Assembly: GCA_964468585.1 (NCBI GenBank)
Contig: CAYXTM010000001.1
Span: forward strand, 108,084 to 172,083
Direction of reading: 5' to 3'
Length of the DNA stretch: 64,000 nt
From: an uncultured Thermoplasmatales archaeon
GTDB lineage: Archaea; Thermoplasmatota; Thermoplasmata; Thermoplasmatales; GCA-001856825
Part shown: piece by piece, positions 53,660 to 63,573 of the stretch
How the letters are laid out: each line of letters begins with the position of its first letter
How positions within the stretch are numbered: position 1 is the stretch's first letter
Notes under the pieces: model-generated
What the model was told of the DNA's origin: nothing
Seen by the model: the letters and a program-made list of their open reading frames with translations, nothing else
Database searches by the model: none
Program-made: the position numbers and the translations under genes

Positions 53660-54811
53660 ATGTTAGCCAAAATAAGATTAAATAATTATTTATCTTCCTA
53701 TGTTGTGCTTTACCTAATCAGATATTCAGAGATAGGAACAAAAGGGGATAACAGATCATTCTTTGAAAATCTACTGGCTAGAAATCTCAAGGCTAAATTT
53801 AATGAAAAGGGGATAGATGCAACTGTTAGTTTGGAAGAGGCGCGCCTCACAGTTGAATCTGAAGTTGATGTTTCTAATATACTATCAAAAACATTCGGAA
53901 TATCCAGCTTTTCACCTGCTACTAGACTGAAATCTGATCCAGATGAGATAATATCATTTTTCAAAAAATTGAAGGTAAGCAAAAAATTCAGGGTCACTGT
54001 CAATAGGAGAGATAAAAATTTCCCCTTTCAGAGCTCATATTTTGCATCGATGCTCGGGGAAATAATTCTTAATGAGAATAAAGAAGCCTCTGTGTCCTTA
54101 GAGAATTATGACATAAATTTTGGGGTTGACATTGGGAAAAAGTGGACATATTTCTACGATTCCGTCATAGATGGACCTGGGGGTTTACCTGTCAGATCCC
54201 AAGGAAGAGGTGTAGTTCTAATCTCAGGGGGAATCGATTCACCAGTTGCAGCATATTTAATGATGAAAAGGGGAATGGAAATAAGTTTGATCCATTATTT
54301 CCAGAGTTCAAGACTGCTAGAGAAGGTTTTCAGGAATAAGGAACTTCTTGAGGAATACAGCCCATATCCAATAGATATCAAAATTGTGGATCACAGAAAA
54401 ATGCTAGGTCCGACCATATTGAAATTGAGAAAGGAAGGTAAGGAGAGTTGGACATGCATATTTTGCAAGAATTATATGTATAAAGAAGCGGAAAAATTTG
54501 CAAAAGAAATAGGAGCTAAGGCTATCGTAACTGGGGAAGATTTGGGACAGGTTGCCAGCCAGACTCTTGATAATCTAAATACCATTGAAAGCGATTTTCA
54601 TTTCCCAATTTTCAGACCTCTTATAGGGTTTGATAAAGAAGAAATTGAGAGAATATCTGAAAAGATTAGGGCATTCGATATATTTTTATCGGTCCCGTCC
54701 TCTTGCGATTGCAGGTTTTTACCATCGAGGCCGAAAACCCGTAGTGATGCATCTGAATTCCTGAAGTTAAAATACAAAATATCAGGTGAAGCAGATGCTA
54801 ACATCCATTAG
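53660..54811 (+). CDS. thiI: tRNA 4-thiouridine synthase ThiI (THUMP + PP-loop, no rhodanese domain)
   Basis: IRYSEIGTKGDNRSFFE is the ThiI N-terminus, and the PP-loop is VLISGGIDSPVAAYLM. The start is uncertain (ATG 53660 or GTG 53705), because TATA-like sequence overlaps the first ATG. Confidence 0.85.
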   Translation: MLAKIRLNNYLSSYVVLYLIRYSEIGTKGDNRSFFENLLARNLKAKFNEKGIDATVSLEEARLTVESEVDVSNILSKTFGISSFSPATRLKSDPDEIISFFKKLKVSKKFRVTVNRRDKNFPFQSSYFASMLGEIILNENKEASVSLENYDINFGVDIGKKWTYFYDSVIDGPGGLPVRSQGRGVVLISGGIDSPVAAYLMMKRGMEISLIHYFQSSRLLEKVFRNKELLEEYSPYPIDIKIVDHRKMLGPTILKLRKEGKESWTCIFCKNYMYKEAEKFAKEIGAKAIVTGEDLGQVASQTLDNLNTIESDFHFPIFRPLIGFDKEEIERISEKIRAFDIFLSVPSSCDCRFLPSRPKTRSDASEFLKLKYKISGEADANIH

Positions 54812-55712
54812 AGTATATTTTCTCGGGACTGGTGGATCCTGGCCAACTCCCATTAGAGGAACAGCTGCAGTAGCAGTGAGATTGGATGATGAGGCCATTT
54901 TGTTCGATTGCGGTGAGTATACCCAAGTCAGGCTGATGAAGAGTTCACTTTCTCTGATGAAGATAAGTAAGATATTCATAACGCATTTTCATGGCGACCA
55001 CTTTTTGGGCCTTCCGGGATTAATTCAAACCATGAGTTTATTTGGTAGAAAGGAACCTCTTGAAATATATGGACCAAGAGGTGCTGTAGAAATCATATCT
55101 AGTCTACTTTCAATAGGATATTTTGACTTGCCTTTCGAAATAAAAGTTGGTGAACTCTGGGAGGAAGGGGAGCTTGATTTTGGCGAATATAAAATAATGT
55201 ATATGAAATCTAATCACACTGTTCCCTCAATATCATATTCGGTTGTTGAAAAGGATACTATCAAATTCGACGAAGAAAAGATAGAGAAGGTAAAAATTCC
55301 TAGAAAATTACTCGAGAAAATTAGAAAAAATGGCTATGTTGAGTATGAAGGTCGGATAATAAAGGCAGAGGATGTGTCTTCCTCTATAAGAAAAGGCAGA
55401 AAAATATCTTATTCTGGGGATACCAGGAAGGACCTGAGATTGACAAAATTATTCGAAAATTCAACCTTACTTATTCATGAAGCAACTGGCGATATGACAT
55501 TGGTCGATAAGGTGAGAACTTACGGTCACTCCACCGGGCAAGATGCAGCGGAAATTGCTGAACTGTCAAAGTCAAGGAGATTGGTCCTAATCCATTTTAG
55601 TCCGAGGTACGACGATATTTCTCCTATCGTAGAGGAGGCTAGGAAGATTTTTAAAAACACTGAGGCATCTAATGACCTGCTTGAATTGGAAGTGAAACTA
55701 TCAGATGTTTGA
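54786..55712 (+). CDS. rnz: Ribonuclease Z (tRNA 3' endonuclease)
   Basis: VYFLGTGGSWP and the metallo-beta-lactamase motif THFHGDHFLGLPGL. 308 aa. An alternative start is ATG 54795. Confidence 0.9.
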   Translation: MKQMLTSIRVYFLGTGGSWPTPIRGTAAVAVRLDDEAILFDCGEYTQVRLMKSSLSLMKISKIFITHFHGDHFLGLPGLIQTMSLFGRKEPLEIYGPRGAVEIISSLLSIGYFDLPFEIKVGELWEEGELDFGEYKIMYMKSNHTVPSISYSVVEKDTIKFDEEKIEKVKIPRKLLEKIRKNGYVEYEGRIIKAEDVSSSIRKGRKISYSGDTRKDLRLTKLFENSTLLIHEATGDMTLVDKVRTYGHSTGQDAAEIAELSKSRRLVLIHFSPRYDDISPIVEEARKIFKNTEASNDLLELEVKLSDV

Positions 55713-56598
55713 ACTTGATATATACGATGCATTTTATAAACTCTTGGAACAAGTTCCAGAAGGTCGCGTTACGACCTATGGAGATATGGCCGTTGCACTG
55801 GGGGATATAATAGCATCTCGTGCGGTTGGAGAGATGCTATCTCAAAACAGGGATCCTGCGCGTTATCCTTGCCATCGTGTAGTTAAATCTGATGGTTCGC
55901 TTGGCGGATTCACGCATCCACTTGGATTAGACGAAAAAGTAAGAAGATTAAAAAGAGAGGGCATAGAAATAGAAAACGGAAAAATAAGGGATTTCCAAAA
56001 GATAAGGTTTAATGATTTCATAACAGACTTCCCACTCAAGAAATTCAGAAACTGGGCCAATTCCCTTACAATTCAGGATTCCTCTGATATTCCAACTTGT
56101 ATTAGGGCCATGGATGTGACTTACATTGGGGACATGGGGATCGGAGTAGGAGTCACATTTGGTGAAGAAATACTCTATGATTTATTCATTAGCAAAGTAA
56201 AGTCACCTTACATTCCAAATTACCTCTATCTTAGGGAGGGTAGAATATATGAATCACTTGTCAGAAAGGATTGCGTAAATGTGATTGATGGAAATGGGAT
56301 GCTTCATAGGGATTTCAGAGGTGTGGCAACCATTGTAGGAATTAATAAGGGTCTAACCACGATTGGTATTGCAAAGTCTCTCCTTGAGGGAGATGTGAAG
56401 GATAAGAGGATATTCATCCATGGTATTGAGGTAGGGATTATTGAAGGCAAATATGCAATATCTCCAGGAAATAAGATATCTCTGGATAAAGCATATTCTA
56501 TCCTTACAACCGACAAATTTTTTCCCCAGACTAAGTATCCAGATGCTATAGGCAGGAGACTGAAAAATGAAATATTGTCTGCTAGAAATAGCATATGA
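55705..56598 (+). CDS. nfi: Fusion protein: O6-alkylguanine-DNA alkyltransferase C-terminal domain + endonuclease V
   Basis: The N-terminal ~85 aa carry the MGMT DNA-binding/active-site domain (VPEGRVTTYGDMA...YPCHRVV, PCHRV Cys intact). The C-terminal ~200 aa are EndoV (AMDVTY, DGNGMLHRDFRGVATIVGI). From memory, the same fusion was characterised biochemically in Ferroplasma acidarmanus. Confidence 0.85.
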   Translation: MFELDIYDAFYKLLEQVPEGRVTTYGDMAVALGDIIASRAVGEMLSQNRDPARYPCHRVVKSDGSLGGFTHPLGLDEKVRRLKREGIEIENGKIRDFQKIRFNDFITDFPLKKFRNWANSLTIQDSSDIPTCIRAMDVTYIGDMGIGVGVTFGEEILYDLFISKVKSPYIPNYLYLREGRIYESLVRKDCVNVIDGNGMLHRDFRGVATIVGINKGLTTIGIAKSLLEGDVKDKRIFIHGIEVGIIEGKYAISPGNKISLDKAYSILTTDKFFPQTKYPDAIGRRLKNEILSARNSI

Positions 56599-57322
56599 TA
56601 ATACATTTCATGGCTTTCAAGTACAACCTGGACTTAGAACAGTTCAGGGGGAAATCCTGAAAAAAGTTAAGCCTATAGGGGTAGATAAAATATATGGATC
56701 TTCTAGAACTGATTCTGGAGTTAGGGCAAGTTCTAATATTCTGGAAATAAAATATGATGATTGCCTAAAATTATGTAAGATTATAGATTCAATACCCGGT
56801 ATATTTGTGATATCATATGCCAATAGCGAAAATTTTGTCAGATTAAGAGGCAGAACGAAGAAATATTATCTTTATCTGCACGACAAACGCCTGAACCATG
56901 ATAAATTGGCGGGAGCGATAAATGAATTCATGAACTCAGATATTTCAAAGTTCTCGAGGAATCCCGAAAAGAAGGTAATATTAGATTCATTAACCTTTAA
57001 AATATTTGATAATTACACTGCTCTAGTTTTTGTAGGAAGGTCATTTTCTTGGAACTTTGTCAGGATTTCTGCAGAAAACATAATAAGAAGGAGCGAGAAT
57101 ATAATAGATGATGATGAATGGCAGGGATTATTGAGAGGAAATACTAAATTCAGGTACAAAGGAAAGGCGAATAATTTGATTCTTTTCAAAACCGAATTGG
57201 ATTTCAAAATGAACCCTTATAACTCTCCTAAATTGATGCGGATATCTTTTGAACAGAAAGTAATACTTTATTGGTTATTCGGGCTTGGAATAAAAATTTC
57301 GATTTCTGATCCATTAGGATAA
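56567..57322 (+). CDS. truA: tRNA pseudouridine synthase A
   Basis: MKYCLLEIAYDNTFHGFQVQP plus the catalytic-Asp block GSSRTDSGVRA. 251 aa. 32-nt overlap with the upstream gene. Confidence 0.85.
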   Translation: MKYCLLEIAYDNTFHGFQVQPGLRTVQGEILKKVKPIGVDKIYGSSRTDSGVRASSNILEIKYDDCLKLCKIIDSIPGIFVISYANSENFVRLRGRTKKYYLYLHDKRLNHDKLAGAINEFMNSDISKFSRNPEKKVILDSLTFKIFDNYTALVFVGRSFSWNFVRISAENIIRRSENIIDDDEWQGLLRGNTKFRYKGKANNLILFKTELDFKMNPYNSPKLMRISFEQKVILYWLFGLGIKISISDPLG

Positions 57323-57409: not shown

Positions 57410-58150
57410 TCAAATTTTACCTTCTTTCTTTAATCTTTGCATAATTATCCAATATCTTGTGGACAGATAGTTGACAATCTTCATTATCTGTGTTAAATTT
57501 TCTTCAGAATTTGAACGGAGCTCAACCATGTTTGGAAAATTATTCAATTGAGGGATTACCCTGAATAATATTATGGTTGATTTATTATTCACATCTGATT
57601 TTCGTTCACTTCTTAAGACTGAATTAATTGGAAAATTAAACTTGAATTTTTGCATATCGAAATGTAATTTTTTATTGGTGATTAACAATACTCCATATCC
57701 ATTTTTGTTAATGTTATTAAATATCATCAATAAATCGCCATGAATTGATACTGGGACTTCGTCATTTCCGATATTGAAGTGTTTCAAAACATCATCATTG
57801 ATTGAGAGTGGAGAAGAAGAAACAGGAAAGAGTTTCTCGATTTCTTCAGAGCCAATTGATGGTTCGCCTAGTGCAACTAATGATCCGCAATTACTGCATA
57901 AAACTATGTTTCCTGTAGGGGTACCCGTCAATGGGGTATTACAAACTGGGCAGTTTGTATTTGAAAAATTATTTGAGTATGAAGTACCATAATTAGTGCT
58001 TGTCTCCGTTGAAAATGATAAATTCTTATTACTAAAACTATCATTTGTATAGGTATATTGATATGATGAATTATCTAAAGGTGACCCACATCTGCTACAA
58101 AACCTTGCGAAATTTTCATTTTCATGGTTACATTTAGGACAGATCTTCAT
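57410..58150 (-). CDS. Double zinc-ribbon protein with a C-terminal PH/GRAM-like domain (tentative)
   Basis: MKICPKCNHENENFARFCSRCGSPL (C-x2-C-x10-C-x2-C). An S/T/N/Y low-complexity linker. A second ribbon CPVCN...CSNCGS. The C-terminal ~130 aa include GYGVLLITNKKLHF, resembling bacterial PH/GRAM folds. Confidence 0.6.
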   Translation of the reverse strand: MKICPKCNHENENFARFCSRCGSPLDNSSYQYTYTNDSFSNKNLSFSTETSTNYGTSYSNNFSNTNCPVCNTPLTGTPTGNIVLCSNCGSLVALGEPSIGSEEIEKLFPVSSSPLSINDDVLKHFNIGNDEVPVSIHGDLLMIFNNINKNGYGVLLITNKKLHFDMQKFKFNFPINSVLRSERKSDVNNKSTIILFRVIPQLNNFPNMVELRSNSEENLTQIMKIVNYLSTRYWIIMQRLKKEGKI

Positions 58151-58380
58151 ATTGTATTTAATGCACTTTCTATTATTAAATTATATTCATGATGTAAAAG
58201 GTCTTCCCTTTCCTTGTTAATTCACATCATATAGCATTAGTTAAATAAAATTTATACCCGATTAGAACGATCAAATTGAAAATAAAAAAATAAGCATATG
58301 TCCCGAACACTACCATAAATAAAATGGAAAATAAAAAGGCGATTATAGTTAATTTCTTTCAGAAATAAATGAATTAAACG

Positions 58381-59244
58381 TTATTTATCTTCCTTTTTAT
58401 TTTCAATATTCCCTTCCTTTATAATCTCACTTAAATTCATTTGACCCATTGGGAGAACATACATATTGAAATATGGCTTTCCAAGGAACATATTAGTGGC
58501 AGCAGGGTCCGATTTTAGAGACATTATTTCCGAAAGTCTTGCCCTTATCGCCATATTAATATCTAGTCCCATGCTGGTGAACTGTACTATCCTCTTCATT
58601 GTTTCGTCCTCTGGTTCAATTCTGACTATTCTGCTGATTATGAGGTTTATCCCTAATTCACCCAACGTCTGTCTAAGAGATGCTGCGACAGCGTCGCTTA
58701 ATTTGTGTAAATTCGCATACAGGTCTTTGATTGAAATCAGATTAAGTACTTGTGATACAGATTGGTCTATTATGGGAGAAACATATTCTGATAGATTTCC
58801 TACAGTATAAACTAGACCGGCCAATTGTACATTTTGTAAAAGCTTAACAGGATCAGATACCTGGAAATAATAGGCCACCTCGTAAATTAAAGGTATAAGT
58901 TCAGAAGTTTGTGATACACCTCGAGTCCTCGCCTCAAATCTTGCCATAGAAAAGAATATAGCCTCAACTGTCCAAGGAACATTTCCGCCATATCCGAGCC
59001 TTGCGAACACATTCGCAATTGGACTGTTTGGAGTGTTCAGGTCGTATGGACCTGGTTCATATACTTGCTGTACCTGACCCTGAATCCTAACTATTGCCTT
59101 TTGATTCGATTCTACTATCAATCTTGACCTAGTCCTTATATCTACGTTATGATCTCTCCAAATAATTACACCTGGTCCCAACGCATCTTGTCCGTTTTCC
59201 ATTAAGGTTCTTACTACGGTCCTAAAAACTACGCCAGAACTCAT
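58381..59244 (-). CDS. SPFH-superfamily protein of the Band_7_1 / YdjI (COG4260-like) type, without TM or zinc ribbon
   Basis: SRLIVESNQKAIVRIQGQVQQVYEPGPYDLNTPNSPI...LGYGGNVPWTVEAIFFS follows the Band_7_1 N-terminal pattern as I remember it. No hydrophobic helix. 287 aa. Confidence 0.6.
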   Translation of the reverse strand: MSSGVVFRTVVRTLMENGQDALGPGVIIWRDHNVDIRTRSRLIVESNQKAIVRIQGQVQQVYEPGPYDLNTPNSPIANVFARLGYGGNVPWTVEAIFFSMARFEARTRGVSQTSELIPLIYEVAYYFQVSDPVKLLQNVQLAGLVYTVGNLSEYVSPIIDQSVSQVLNLISIKDLYANLHKLSDAVAASLRQTLGELGINLIISRIVRIEPEDETMKRIVQFTSMGLDINMAIRARLSEIMSLKSDPAATNMFLGKPYFNMYVLPMGQMNLSEIIKEGNIENKKEDK

Positions 59245-59248
59245 ATTA

Positions 59249-59749
59249 TTATCTTACCTCCGGTGGCAGAAATAGATTCATTCGCTTATTGAACATATCC
59301 CGTAGATATCGCAGGTTTTTCAGAATATCTTTTAGATTTTCAGTATACTGCTCTGCTAAGTTCTTTGATTCGCTAATAATTTCAAAATCATATTGCAATA
59401 TTTGGTTCAATATATTTACATCCATTTTATATCTATCATGAAAATTAAACGTGCCTGTAGGGGCTCCAGTTAACTCCTGCACGAATGTCCTTCCTTCCAT
59501 AAAAATTTCTTCAAAGGTAGAGATCGTCTCGTCAAAAGGATTTTGCTTCGAAATTTCCTCTTCTCGAATTTTCAGCTTATCCATTAGCTTTTCTATATTT
59601 AATCTAATGGCTTGTCTAACTATGGCATCATCTTGTTTTATTATATCGCGTTCTTTGTACCCCTTGAAACCTGGCAGCAATAGAAGAAGCTTTTCATAGG
59701 GTGTCATTTTTGAATCTATGATTCCTGCCATACTTAATACTAACTTCAT
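59249..59749 (-). CDS. Hypothetical all-helical protein (166 aa), operon partner of the SPFH gene
   Basis: Its stop lies 4 nt upstream of the SPFH start. The sequence is charged and helix-prone (DIIKQDDAIVRQAIRLNIEKLMDKLKIREEEISKQ). No TM and no recognisable family. The start is ambiguous (M1, M7 or M15). Confidence 0.5.
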   Translation of the reverse strand: MKLVLSMAGIIDSKMTPYEKLLLLLPGFKGYKERDIIKQDDAIVRQAIRLNIEKLMDKLKIREEEISKQNPFDETISTFEEIFMEGRTFVQELTGAPTGTFNFHDRYKMDVNILNQILQYDFEIISESKNLAEQYTENLKDILKNLRYLRDMFNKRMNLFLPPEVR

Positions 59750-59940
59750 TTATTATAAAAATATTTCTTTTTAAACCTATGAGTACCATGATGTAATGAA
59801 TAAAAAATCAAAATGCTATGGCACAATTGAATGCCATTTTGGATAATATAGCCCACTATCATAGGAGTCGCTAATGTAAATTTAGCTCTTTTATGAGAGA
59901 TTCAACAAATCTTTTATATTTGACTTCCTTGGTATTACGT

Positions 59941-60474
59941 ATGAAGTATTGTCCGAAATGTGGCACGCCAAATCCGGATGATGCAGCTTTTTGCGCTTCA
60001 TGTGGTTCACCTCTACCTTTGACTTCTACCGCACAAAAACCAAGCAATAGTACGACTGGGGGAAGTATGCAACAACCACCTCAGCAATCACAATTTGGAA
60101 ATTATAATCCCTCATCATCTGATCTGATAGTTGTAAGTACACCTTATATTCCCGGCTATAAAATCACAAGGGTAATTGGATTCACTTGGGGATTGATTGT
60201 TCGGTCTAGAGGACTTGGTGGTAACGTGGTAGCATCCCTTAGAACCATCGCTGGAGGGGAAATAAAAGAATATACGCAGATGTTGGATCAAAGTAGATAC
60301 GAGGCGTTGGAAAGATTAAAACAACATGCAAAGACATTAGGAGCAAATGCTATAATTGAAGTGCGATTTGATTCGTCCGAAATAGGACAGGTGATGTCTG
60401 AAATCCTTGCCTATGGAACAGCTGTCCTTGTGGAAAAGTCAGATGAACCTGCTCAATCCGTTTCTCTGATTTAA
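59941..60474 (+). CDS. Zinc-ribbon + YbjQ (UPF0145/DUF74) domain protein
   Basis: MKYCPKCGTPNPDDAAFCASCGSPL, then a P/Q/S linker, then the YbjQ core (IPGYKITRVIGFTWGLIVRSRGLGGNV...GANAIIEVRFDSSEI...AYGTAVLVEK). The track ORF starts at 59893. The ATG at 59941, placing the ribbon at the N-terminus, is more plausible. Confidence 0.75.
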   Translation: MKYCPKCGTPNPDDAAFCASCGSPLPLTSTAQKPSNSTTGGSMQQPPQQSQFGNYNPSSSDLIVVSTPYIPGYKITRVIGFTWGLIVRSRGLGGNVVASLRTIAGGEIKEYTQMLDQSRYEALERLKQHAKTLGANAIIEVRFDSSEIGQVMSEILAYGTAVLVEKSDEPAQSVSLI

Positions 60475-61142: not shown

Positions 61143-62705
61143 ATGGGCGAACATCGCAATCACCGAATGCTTGCCATAAGTGTTCTTGTCTGGATCCTAA
61201 TTCTTGGCATTTCCATTCAGGGTTTACATGCATCGGGTATCTCCTCTTCCATAAACCAATTTAGTCCAGTAACTCCAGAAGTTCTAAATGCTTCTATAGA
61301 AAATCAATCGTCAACGGTTCAATTCAATAGTGGTGGGAGTCTCTACTTCTATACTGCAGTGGATGGAGGGGGAGTTTCTTTGACGAACCCAAGTTTCAAT
61401 GTCCAATCAATCGTTGTAGACGGCAACGGATTTGTTTCTGCAGAAGCAGGCTATTCCACATTAAATAAGGGCAGCGTTAATACCAATGGGGCGGCATATT
61501 ATGCCATAAGTGGTGTTGAGATCGGAAGCACCGCTGGAATAAACACATCCCTGATCCAAGAAACAAATATAGCTTCTAGTTCTAACGGTTCATATGGTGC
61601 TAATTATGCTAACTTGACCTTCCAGGTTGTAGCCTCTAACTCTCTTGTGGTGGTGACTGCGGCTGGATCATCGAACGCTAACCCACACTTCACCTCCAGC
61701 TTTAGCTTAAATGTTCTAGATATGCTGAGCTCAACTGTATCAATCATTCAAGGTTATTCTGTTGTTAATGCAGGATCATATAATGTTTCGGTATCAATGA
61801 CTAATGTTGGTACGAATCCTGATGGAAGTTCTGTCCTTCTACAGGTATATGTCATCCCTCCTGCAAATTTTGCGCCTGCCCAAAAATATCCTGTTTATTT
61901 TAAAGAGAGTGGTCTTCCCTCTGGTACAACATGGCATGTAACATTGGGTAATAAAACTGAATCATCAAGCAACAATACAATAGAATTTAATGTTTATAAT
62001 GGCACATACCACTACTATATTCATCCCGTTAATAACTTATATCCATCACCTGAGTCCGGAAACGTAACTATAAATGGTGGTGTCGCTACAGTAGGAGTTG
62101 CCTTTTATCCTCCCATGGAATATTCAATATCGTTCGTCCCTAATTCCAATATTCAAAATGTGGAATGGTGGGTAACATTCAATGGCACAACAAAATATTC
62201 CAATGGCTCAGCTGAGATAGTATTTTCAGCGGTAAATGGAACCTACACCTATTCTATTGGAGTAGAGAACGGATATAATGTAACTCCCTCATCCGGCCTG
62301 ATCGTTGTAAACGGAAGTTCTGTCATAACCTCTGTTTATATAATTCCAAAACTTTTCACTGTCATAGTAACCGAATCAGGTCTTCCCCCTGGAACAACTT
62401 GGTCAATTACGGTTAATGGAAACCAGTATTCCTCACAGAACAATACAATCATATTACATCTTGCTGACGGCACATATACGATAACCATAAACCCTGTGCA
62501 AGGTTATAGCCCGTCTCCATCGAAACTTAAGGTATCTGTAAATAACGAGAATTCTCAAGTGAAATTTGATTACCTTTATCAGTCACCAGCATCCCTTTCA
62601 ATGATATATTCGCCTTCCATTCTACTTGCTGTTTCTTTGATTGTGTTCCTCATCTGTGCAGCTTTCGTAATGGCCTTAATAAGAGGTGGTAGAAATGAAT
62701 TATAA
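61143..62705 (+). CDS. Surface protein: signal/anchor, ~215-aa N-terminal domain, three GLPxGTTW-type beta-sandwich repeats, C-terminal TM anchor
   Basis: LAISVLVWILILGISIQGLHASG acts as the signal. The repeats are listed separately. The C-terminus is ILLAVSLIVFLICAAFVMALIRGGRNEL. Sequon-rich. Confidence 0.7.
   Translation: MGEHRNHRMLAISVLVWILILGISIQGLHASGISSSINQFSPVTPEVLNASIENQSSTVQFNSGGSLYFYTAVDGGGVSLTNPSFNVQSIVVDGNGFVSAEAGYSTLNKGSVNTNGAAYYAISGVEIGSTAGINTSLIQETNIASSSNGSYGANYANLTFQVVASNSLVVVTAAGSSNANPHFTSSFSLNVLDMLSSTVSIIQGYSVVNAGSYNVSVSMTNVGTNPDGSSVLLQVYVIPPANFAPAQKYPVYFKESGLPSGTTWHVTLGNKTESSSNNTIEFNVYNGTYHYYIHPVNNLYPSPESGNVTINGGVATVGVAFYPPMEYSISFVPNSNIQNVEWWVTFNGTTKYSNGSAEIVFSAVNGTYTYSIGVENGYNVTPSSGLIVVNGSSVITSVYIIPKLFTVIVTESGLPPGTTWSITVNGNQYSSQNNTIILHLADGTYTITINPVQGYSPSPSKLKVSVNNENSQVKFDYLYQSPASLSMIYSPSILLAVSLIVFLICAAFVMALIRGGRNEL
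61887..62573 (+). repeat. Three tandem ~73-78-aa protein-domain repeats within the surface protein (61887-62120, 62121-62354, 62355-62573)
   Basis: The units align by eye. Unit 1: YPVYFKESGLPSGTTWHVTLGNK...NGTYHYYIHPV..YPSP. Unit 2: YSISFVPNS..NVEWWVTFNGT...NGTYTYSIGVENGYNVTP. Unit 3: FTVIVTESGLPPGTTWSITVNGN...DGTYTITINPVQGYSPSP. Confidence 0.75.
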
Positions 62706-63573
62706 TTATCCTCAGTACTCTCAACCAAGTACAAAGAAAGGGAGTAGAATCAAAATAGGACTACTTATAGTTGCAATTGGCCTACTTGGTGGTGCCATTC
62801 CAACATTAGGCGCAGTCCTCTCATTTTTGGTGTTGATTGGTGCAATAATTGTGTTTTTGGGGGCAAGGGATTTATCTAATACATATAGGAAATTTACAAC
62901 TATTTCCCTTATTTTAATTTTTATAATGATTGTAGTTGAGCTATATGCATCAATAAAAATGATAACGACTATGTCATCGCTTGCAAATATGGGAACGATC
63001 CCATATTCATATATCATAAAAATAATTGATCCATTCATCTTTTACATTTCAATAGCTTATATTCTGTTAGGTGCTTCACTACTTCTCATATCCTATCCCA
63101 TATATTTTAAGAATACCAGGTTCATACCTTGGGCTATATACGCCCTTTCATTCATTATTTTCCTAGCGGAAGCATATTCTCAGATGGTTGCACTCAATAA
63201 GATGTATTATCAGAATCTCACAATCTATAATGTTGGAGTCTTTACCAATGCATCTTATGGATTGGATGATGGTGCAGGAATCTTCATGTTTCTATGGGCA
63301 ATTGCTATATTCATTGCTTATTTTTATTCTAGGAGAAGATTCCCAAAAATAATACCTCAATTTGGTCCGTCTCAGCCTATGCCAGACCAATATTATGCTC
63401 AGAATCAGCCCTTCGAATCTCGCGTTCCTCAAAACGCTCCTCAAAATATTGACCAAAACACAACAGGTCAAGCAAATCTTGGTCTGCAAAATGGTAAATA
63501 TTGCCCCACATGTGGCACACTAAATGCACCTGAATCTAAGTTCTGCGTCAGGTGTGGATCCAGGCTTCAATGA
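62695..63573 (+). CDS. Polytopic membrane protein with a Q/P/N-rich tail and a C-terminal zinc ribbon
   Basis: About six hydrophobic helices, then PQFGPSQPMPDQYYAQNQPFESRVPQNAPQNIDQ, ending KYCPTCGTLNAPESKFCVRCGSRLQ. The track start is GTG 62686. The ATG at 62695 is preceded by GAGGTGGT (SD-like) and overlaps the upstream gene by 11 nt. Confidence 0.7.
   Translation: MNYNYPQYSQPSTKKGSRIKIGLLIVAIGLLGGAIPTLGAVLSFLVLIGAIIVFLGARDLSNTYRKFTTISLILIFIMIVVELYASIKMITTMSSLANMGTIPYSYIIKIIDPFIFYISIAYILLGASLLLISYPIYFKNTRFIPWAIYALSFIIFLAEAYSQMVALNKMYYQNLTIYNVGVFTNASYGLDDGAGIFMFLWAIAIFIAYFYSRRRFPKIIPQFGPSQPMPDQYYAQNQPFESRVPQNAPQNIDQNTTGQANLGLQNGKYCPTCGTLNAPESKFCVRCGSRLQ

Follow-up and report, generated by a model that had tools for sequence, protein, structure and literature searches.

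A soluble archaeal SPFH protein and the family of helical proteins encoded beside it

Stomatin and prohibitin, like flotillin and HflK/C, are currently viewed as membrane-anchored cages, and the Band_7_1/YdjI branch of SPFH proteins is atypical in being soluble and in needing recruitment to the membrane. A 64,000-nucleotide stretch of contig CAYXTM010000001.1 from an uncultured Thermoplasmatales archaeon (here, the window) encodes a soluble SPFH protein of 287 amino acids (aa) directly behind the gene of a charged, helical protein of 166 aa, which we refer to as the partner. The locus thus raises the question of what this partner is and what it might do for an SPFH protein that has no anchor of its own. 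An original prediction, made from the letters of the window, took the two genes for an operon and raised the possibility that the partner is a divergent PspA/ESCRT-III-like helix hairpin. Our analysis indicates that this helical protein very probably represents an obligate partner, not described before, of the SPFH scaffold, because the two genes adjoin each other in hundreds of genomes of bacteria and archaea.

We assessed the conservation of the gene pair in a partner-led scan (motif-selected alignment, one genome per species), which gave at least 483 confirmed stretches, and kept 80 loci, mostly from Chloroflexota with several from Bathyarchaeia. An SPFH open reading frame (ORF) lies directly downstream of the partner gene and on the same strand in 76 of these 80 genome loci, and in the other four the contig breaks off at or close to the partner gene. 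A metagenome scan for the SPFH clade of the window found the partner in 25 of 36 loci, including all eight of the Thermoplasmata type; the loci without it belong to short contigs or to a Marsarchaeota-type subclade. Pairwise distances between partner proteins and between SPFH proteins are correlated (r = 0.915, Mantel p = 0.001, n = 107 pairs/loci), which fits co-inheritance of the two genes. Conservation of the two genes as neighbors, on which the original prediction depended, is borne out by both scans and by look-ups of individual loci. A literature search that was not exhaustive found no paper on the gene pair or on a link between the partner family and Band_7_1.

The spacing and order of the two genes vary between lineages. 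The intergenic gap or overlap is at most 15 nucleotides (nt) in seven loci, the window among them. Thermoplasmata relatives of the window have the partner gene followed by the SPFH gene. The order is partner, SPFH, and a protein with four transmembrane helices in Sulfodiicoccus and SPFH, four-transmembrane protein, and partner in Caldivirga, and Vulcanisaeta carries the same three genes inside 2 kb on two strands. The pair is also present in Desulfurococcaceae (locus L096), where the SPFH protein ends in a SHOCT tail, and in Thermofilaceae (L097) and a Joint Genome Institute (JGI) metagenome contig (L098), where the SPFH protein bears zinc-ribbon tails. One Anaerolineae lineage (L011 and L013, 5513-7151) has the pair with two genes between the partner and SPFH genes, which encode an SRPBCC protein (Polyketide_cyc2) and a 395-aa protein with a weakly PsbP-like C terminus. 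The SRPBCC lipid-binding fold inserted in the Anaerolineae pair may hint at a lipid connection. In one Thermoplasmata metagenome contig (L095, 827-1301), the partner gene just upstream of the SPFH gene is broken into two ORFs (125 and 30 aa), owing to either a frameshift or an assembly error. Judged from gene content across these loci, the partner and the SPFH protein make up a constant core, to which the other genes are variable additions.

Within the acidophile clade, the partner proteins are 32 to 46% identical to that of the window and the SPFH proteins 54 to 78% identical, the latter being under much tighter constraint. Such SPFH identity among Thermoplasmata, Sulfolobales, Thermoproteales, and Marsarchaeota is unusually high across phyla, suggesting that the gene spread horizontally between hot, acidic habitats, that the SPFH subunit is very strongly constrained, or both.

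Both ORFs are present in the window at the coordinates first reported for them (Table 1). The stop codon of the partner gene (TAA, 59251-59249) and the ATG of the SPFH gene (59244-59242) lie on the same strand and are separated by 4 nt, as had been described. The length of 166 aa holds for the partner ORF, and the protein itself is probably 160 aa long: a second in-frame ATG, at 59731, is the start in homologs and in public gene call P0001 (160 aa), and probably the true one. An TTTTATAATAA box is a candidate archaeal promoter for both genes, and because it lies about 25 nt from ATG 59731, the mRNA is probably leaderless. The position of a GGAGGT sequence suggests that translation of the SPFH gene is coupled to that of the partner gene, and T-rich runs past the SPFH gene form a candidate archaeal terminator that would mark the operon end. 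Given these T-rich runs and the 230-nt gap that separates the SPFH stop codon from the next gene, the partner and SPFH genes look like a two-gene operon. The operon originally proposed is likewise upheld by the 4-nt gap and by the GGAGGT upstream of the second gene.

Table 1. Positions in the window of the gene pair, its putative expression signals, and the neighboring genes.
Feature	Position	Strand	Remarks
Helical partner gene	59249..59749	-	166-aa ORF counted from first ATG
Soluble SPFH gene	58381..59244	-	287-aa ORF
TATA-like box TTTTATAATAA	59750..59760	-	~25 nt upstream of ATG 59731; read off the sequence
GGAGGT, Shine-Dalgarno-like	59256..59261	-	Within 3' end of partner gene, 11 nt before SPFH ATG
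T-rich runs	58316..58338	-	Past SPFH stop codon; read off the sequence
246-aa protein, zinc ribbons at residues 4-25 and 67-90	57410..58150	-	Pfam DZR and Zn_Ribbon_1; no transmembrane helix
251-aa ORF	56567-57322	+	Between endonuclease V fusion and ribbon protein; no Pfam match at E <= 1e-5
MGMT-DNA-binding/endonuclease V fusion	55705-56598		Just downstream of the pair
ThiI	53660-54811		Just downstream of the pair
Zinc ribbon-YbjQ fusion	59893..60474	+	N-terminal ribbon, Q/S/P-rich linker, YbjQ_1 (UPF0145) 126.9 bits; divergent from the pair
520-aa secreted, sequon-rich protein	61143..62705	+	Signal-like N terminus, many N-x-S/T, C-terminal transmembrane anchor
295-aa multi-transmembrane protein with C-terminal ribbon	62686..63573	+	Pfam Zn_Ribbon_1, residues 272-294

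The 287-aa product is an SPFH protein without its own membrane anchor. It scores 68.1 bits on Pfam Band_7 (PF01145; cut-off, 23.6) and 64.5 bits on Band_7_1 (PF13421; cut-off, 24), the latter not above the former, and its translation contains the motifs IVESNQKAIVRIQG, YEPGPYDLNTPNSPI, and GYGGNVPWTVEAIFFS that the original prediction had quoted. An AlphaFold (AF2) model built on an alignment of 41 orthologs (predicted local distance difference test [pLDDT], 76.4) and Foldseek searches with it establish the SPFH alpha/beta fold. The core of the model spans residues ~26 to 211 and is followed by short helices (214-224, 229-243, and 247-254) and a disordered tail (258-287), and Foldseek matches it with probability 1.00 and E values down to 4e-11 to prohibitin, stomatin, HflK/C, flotillin, erlin, and QmcA. 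The 287-aa protein has no transmembrane helix or hairpin anchor (top 19-residue Kyte-Doolittle mean, 1.1) and no zinc ribbon or finger (0 Cys, no Pfam ribbon match), and the long C-terminal coiled coil of cage-forming SPFH proteins is not seen in the AF2 model. The initial description of a soluble SPFH protein that passes Band_7_1, with neither a transmembrane helix nor a ribbon, is correct on both counts. Orthologs with 54 to 85% identity occur in Thermoplasmata metagenome-assembled genomes, Marsarchaeota, Sulfodiicoccus, Vulcanisaeta, Caldivirga, and Thermocladium. In bacteria, the SPFH proteins that accompany the partner family belong clearly to Band_7_1 (206 bits versus 47 bits for Band_7).

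The partner has no Pfam family match, and sequence searches of the PDB, whether the query was the protein alone or the family profile, returned only coiled-coil or designed-bundle noise. A word-seeded homology search, a method that needs shared 5-residue words, recovered the 166-aa protein alone. This apparent orphan status was overturned when HMMER was run in full over 1.84 billion cluster representatives, a scan that gave 70 representative clusters at E < 1e-3 with lengths of 145 to 221 aa. A family-profile search extended the family to more than 1,000 proteins, with no Pfam domain on any of the 120 listed; named sources of these matches include Desulfurococcaceae, Zestosphaera, Thermofilaceae, Fervidicoccaceae, Nitrososphaerota, Brockarchaeota, and Anaerolineae. 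The family ranges over Chloroflexota, Bathyarchaeia, Thermoproteota, Thermoplasmata, and Leptospira. Of 65 relatives, 59 hit NCBIfam NF047596 (“LIMLP_15305 family protein”) with E <= 0.01, the best value being 7e-19; the window protein itself scores 17.5 bits (cut-off, 210; E = 0.003) over residues 38 to 138. On these scores, the window partner is a relative of NF047596 within a wider superfamily and lies outside the Leptospira equivalog. NF047596 has no recorded function, and the sole paper found to name its locus tag lists it as a gene beside a small RNA.

The alignment of the partner family reveals three invariant positions (Y31, D41, and D121), eight near-invariant ones (P26, G27, G30, R/K38, R45, G99, L114, and R156), and two motifs, PG[FY]xGYKxK[ED]..R..D...R and A.xGYxGFFD..K. 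The window partner has P26, G27, G30, Y31, K38, D41, R45, G99, D121, and R156, and the family length is about 150 to 190 aa. The AF2 model of the partner is all-helical (pLDDT, 86.9; predicted template-modeling score [pTM], 0.81), with a short helix at residues 17 to 24, four main helices (34-69, 75-95, 111-133, and 139-160), and a one-turn helix at 102 to 105. Judging by the order of these helices, the conserved segments are expected to lie together near one end of the bundle. The partner is an all-helical protein without a Pfam family, in line with the original description, and none of the searches placed it in an unrelated well-known family. Foldseek with the partner model gave no PDB match with an E value below 0.2 and no template-modeling (TM) score above 0.36, and a viral structure library also gave nothing below that E value; the PDB matches listed are talin rod domains, V-ATPase c subunits, and designed bundles. 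PADLOC and PHROGs searches for a defense or phage origin were empty for both window proteins. A PDC-S06 match (14.9 bits) of one relative was dismissed as noise.

The closest described parallel is from Bacillus subtilis, in which soluble YdjI/SamI has a C-terminal zinc finger and depends on the membrane partners YdjG and YdjH, with YdjG consisting of two ribbons and a transmembrane segment (PMC8581546; PMC11237479; bioRxiv 10.64898/2026.02.06.704340). The account of the pspA-ydjGHI operon on which the original prediction drew is accurate (PMC8581546; bioRxiv 10.64898/2026.02.06.704340). Like YdjI/SamI of this operon, whose ydjGHI genes are also called samGHI, the window SPFH protein is anchorless, matches PF13421, and is encoded in an operon with a non-enzymatic partner. 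Zinc-ribbon proteins are also found nearby in both cases, namely, YdjG in Bacillus and the ribbon proteins in the window and in other loci of the pair. Unlike YdjI/SamI, the window SPFH protein ends in a disordered tail instead of a C-terminal zinc finger and contains 0 Cys, and its adjacent partner belongs to an unrelated helical-bundle family. A single-sequence phmmer search detected no pspA among the ORFs of the window or of loci L001-L093, and neither YdjH (TPM) nor a clear YdjG ortholog is found among the neighbors examined. The window protein further differs in that it is 21 to 26% identical to typical bacterial Band_7_1 proteins and scores similarly on Band_7. The label “YdjI-type” originally given to it fits only by half: the protein is soluble and passes PF13421, though not with a better score than on Band_7, it has no C-terminal zinc finger, and the phmmer search detected no pspA.

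NfeD partners are membrane proteins with an OB-fold domain and are sometimes fused to a protease. The stomatin-NfeD, QmcA-YbbJ, and flotillin-NfeD (YuaG-YuaF) systems resemble the window pair in that an SPFH gene is coupled to a small dedicated partner in both bacteria and archaea, and QmcA shares the SPFH fold (entry 8z5g is among the Foldseek matches). In contrast to NfeD, the window partner is soluble and all-helical. The SPFH proteins of the NfeD systems have transmembrane or hairpin anchors and long coiled coils, whereas the window SPFH protein has neither.

We favor the general reading, with a probability of roughly 0.6, that the SPFH protein and its partner make up a conserved membrane-located complex in which the partner is an adaptor or a regulator. 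Both proteins would be made together through coupled translation and would bind each other as a stoichiometric complex. The SPFH subunit would oligomerize on the cytoplasmic face of the membrane, like other SPFH proteins, and the partner would act as an adaptor or assembly regulator that joins the scaffold to a membrane receptor or lipid. Docking or regulation may proceed through one conserved region of the partner, composed of PGFxGYK before helix 1, R/K38, D41, and R45 where helix 1 begins, the GYxGFFD-type loop that joins helices 2 and 3, D121, and R156. Membrane attachment would be supplied by lineage-specific transmembrane or ribbon proteins, and the nearby zinc-ribbon proteins are candidates for this anchoring role in the window. 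By likeness to B. subtilis YdjI/SamI, the output would most likely be membrane organization or a membrane-stress response.

Several points weigh against this reading. Marsarchaeota-type SPFH genes have no partner within 5 kb and are followed by an NfeD gene instead (L004-L006, 5001-7367), which encodes a protein of 429 to 449 aa, and the partner of Vulcanisaeta-type loci is several genes off or on the opposite strand. The partner model matches no known fold, and therefore no function can be transferred to it from a known protein. The placement of the conserved patch is deduced from the order of helices. The physical interaction of the SPFH protein with its partner is deduced from gene linkage, and the membrane association and stress role of the pair are drawn by analogy. 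NfeD is the classical partner of stomatin, and its presence in the Marsarchaeota-type loci may reflect partner swapping.

A more specific version of the complex is tentative, and we regard it as unlikely. The helical protein would here be the second subunit of a PspA-independent SPFH machine common to bacteria and archaea, one that builds a membrane-associated cage or patch from the partner and a Band_7_1 protein lacking both anchor and coiled coil, and to which the partner gives, in trans, either the wall or lid helices that are part of other SPFH proteins in cis or the membrane-remodeling activity for which Firmicutes use PspA.

The conserved polar residues of the partner (Y31, R/K38, D41, R45, D121, and R156) and its Gly-rich loops gather in one region of the bundle, a pattern that fits a binding site more than a purely structural protein. 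The helical protein could accordingly be a sensor of a small ligand or lipid headgroup that switches SPFH assembly, and hence a regulatory subunit instead of a structural adaptor. We consider such a sensor unlikely, since Pfam, the PDB profile search, and Foldseek reveal no similarity to known sensor bundles, and the same residues could equally form an SPFH-binding surface or internal salt bridges.

The PspA/ESCRT-III question can be addressed more directly. The window partner resembles PspA, Vipp1, and ESCRT-III in being small, charged, all-helical, cytoplasmic, and encoded with a Band_7_1 SPFH protein, but it has no detectable similarity to them in sequence, profile, or fold. Neither PF04012 (PspA_IM30) nor Snf7 matches the window partner, and both are absent from the top families listed for 65 members of the family. 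An hhalign comparison of the family profile with Escherichia coli PspA, which itself scores 166.5 bits on PF04012, gave a probability of 0.4%. No PspA, Vipp1, or ESCRT-III entry is among the 50 Foldseek matches listed for the confident partner model, and the 166-aa protein does not display the long alpha1-alpha2/3 hairpin fold of the PspA/ESCRT-III type. A PspA relationship of the partner was rejected on these Pfam, hhalign, and Foldseek results, and the divergent hairpin first considered finds no support. The same holds for LemA and TelA, the other families put forward for comparison, neither of which has a Pfam match to the window partner or is included in the top families given in the Pfam listing of the 65 relatives.

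The helical protein might still correspond to PspA/ESCRT-III in function, or very remotely in structure; the SPFH protein would recruit it to the membrane, and there it would polymerize and repair or remodel the bilayer. B. subtilis provides a parallel context in which the Band_7_1 protein YdjI recruits PspA (PMC8581546). A single-sequence phmmer search with E. coli PspA, which is of limited reach, detected no pspA-like ORF in the window or in loci L001-L093, which carry the helical gene, and this absence would fit a replacement. The short N-terminal helix before the motif has an amphipathic moment of 0.31 to 0.69 in the family (0.31 in the window protein), and the helix lengths, one long and then shorter, are superficially ESCRT-III-like. 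Set beside the absent sequence, profile, and fold similarity, these features leave a PspA counterpart quite unlikely.

SPFH proteins have precedents for a link to proteases in the HflK/C-FtsH and stomatin-NfeD systems, and by extension the pair might regulate a membrane protease, with the helical protein as an adaptor or substrate mimic. The automatic annotation of SPFH orthologs at JGI as “membrane protease subunit” and the NfeD protein that follows the partner-less Marsarchaeota ortholog point in this direction. However, across the ~120 loci examined the pair has no conserved protease neighbor, an M48 peptidase occurs in one locus only and on the other strand, and the window SPFH protein lacks the transmembrane anchor and the long coiled coil of cage-forming protease regulators. 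We therefore hold a protease-regulating role to be very unlikely. That the adjacency is meaningless and the 166-aa ORF unrelated or spurious, as the first homology search with its single hit might have suggested, deserves practically no credence, since that search was word-dependent, the full HMMER scan gave 70 clusters, and the pairing recurs in 76 of 80 loci and more across two domains of life.

The addition to the pair in Thermoproteota is the four-transmembrane protein (141 to 148 aa), a homolog of which was sought in the window and not found. Loci L096, L097, and L098 add small proteins with three to four transmembrane helices and N-terminal-ribbon proteins with or without C-terminal transmembrane helices. 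The Chloroflexota loci (L014-L093) carry a transmembrane-winged-helix (PCI-like)-zinc-ribbon protein of ~179 aa in 41 cases and a DUF2207 membrane protein in 34, encoded about 0.6 kb and 2.6 kb, respectively, upstream of the partner and on the same strand. ORF clustering is noisy in the high-GC flanks of Chloroflexota, and only these two extra conserved neighbors are credible; in the bacterial version, both are candidates for a membrane receptor.

The ribbon-bearing neighbors that the original prediction counted among the local parts are real (Table 1), but no specific anchor was established among them, and the list is a reasonable lead. The 246-aa protein with two ribbons is a possible accessory to the pair. 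Its resemblance to the ribbon proteins beside the pair in L097 and L098 is confined to the ribbons (E, 0.001 to 0.05), and no ortholog adjoins the pair in related Thermoplasmata loci. Its C-terminal domain of ~150 aa has no Pfam match and may be PH/GRAM-like, judged by eye (GYGVLLITNKKLHF...). The 295-aa ribbon protein is a candidate membrane receptor with modest linkage evidence: orthologs (48% identical) adjoin the pair in L094, L099, and L100 on the opposite side, and both it and the 520-aa protein are absent from the other Thermoplasmata loci examined. The 520-aa ORF and the 295-aa gene overlap by 20 nt and stay linked in the same three loci, and the 520-aa product is probably a surface protein outside the SPFH module. 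A surface glycoprotein of this kind calls into question the premise that the host is a wall-less acidophile with a special need for membrane-integrity machinery.

Two further observations concern the surroundings of the pair. An N-terminal ribbon followed by a low-complexity linker and a variable C-terminal module is a recurrent architecture in the region of the window and in L094. Genes for ThiI and endonuclease V also adjoin the partner/SPFH cluster in Vulcanisaeta (L010, 1872-4124), which belongs to a different phylum; the synteny may be shared, a larger block may have been transferred together, or the likeness may be coincidental.

SPFH-plus-partner operons are already known from stomatin-NfeD, flotillin-NfeD, and YdjI-PspA. 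What is new here is a family that has no Pfam entry or recorded function and that stands almost invariably beside Band_7_1 genes. This family is a concrete candidate for the assembly, regulation, or docking of soluble SPFH scaffolds, and its occurrence shows the PspA-YdjGHI arrangement of Bacillus to be only one among several solutions. Its cultivated carriers include Caldivirga maquilingensis, Vulcanisaeta distributa, Sulfodiicoccus acidiphilus, and Leptospira. The pair, known here from sequences and models, will not surprise specialists and is a useful lead on SPFH proteins that lack an anchor. If the PspA-independent two-subunit machine were true, it would represent a new class of SPFH assembly.

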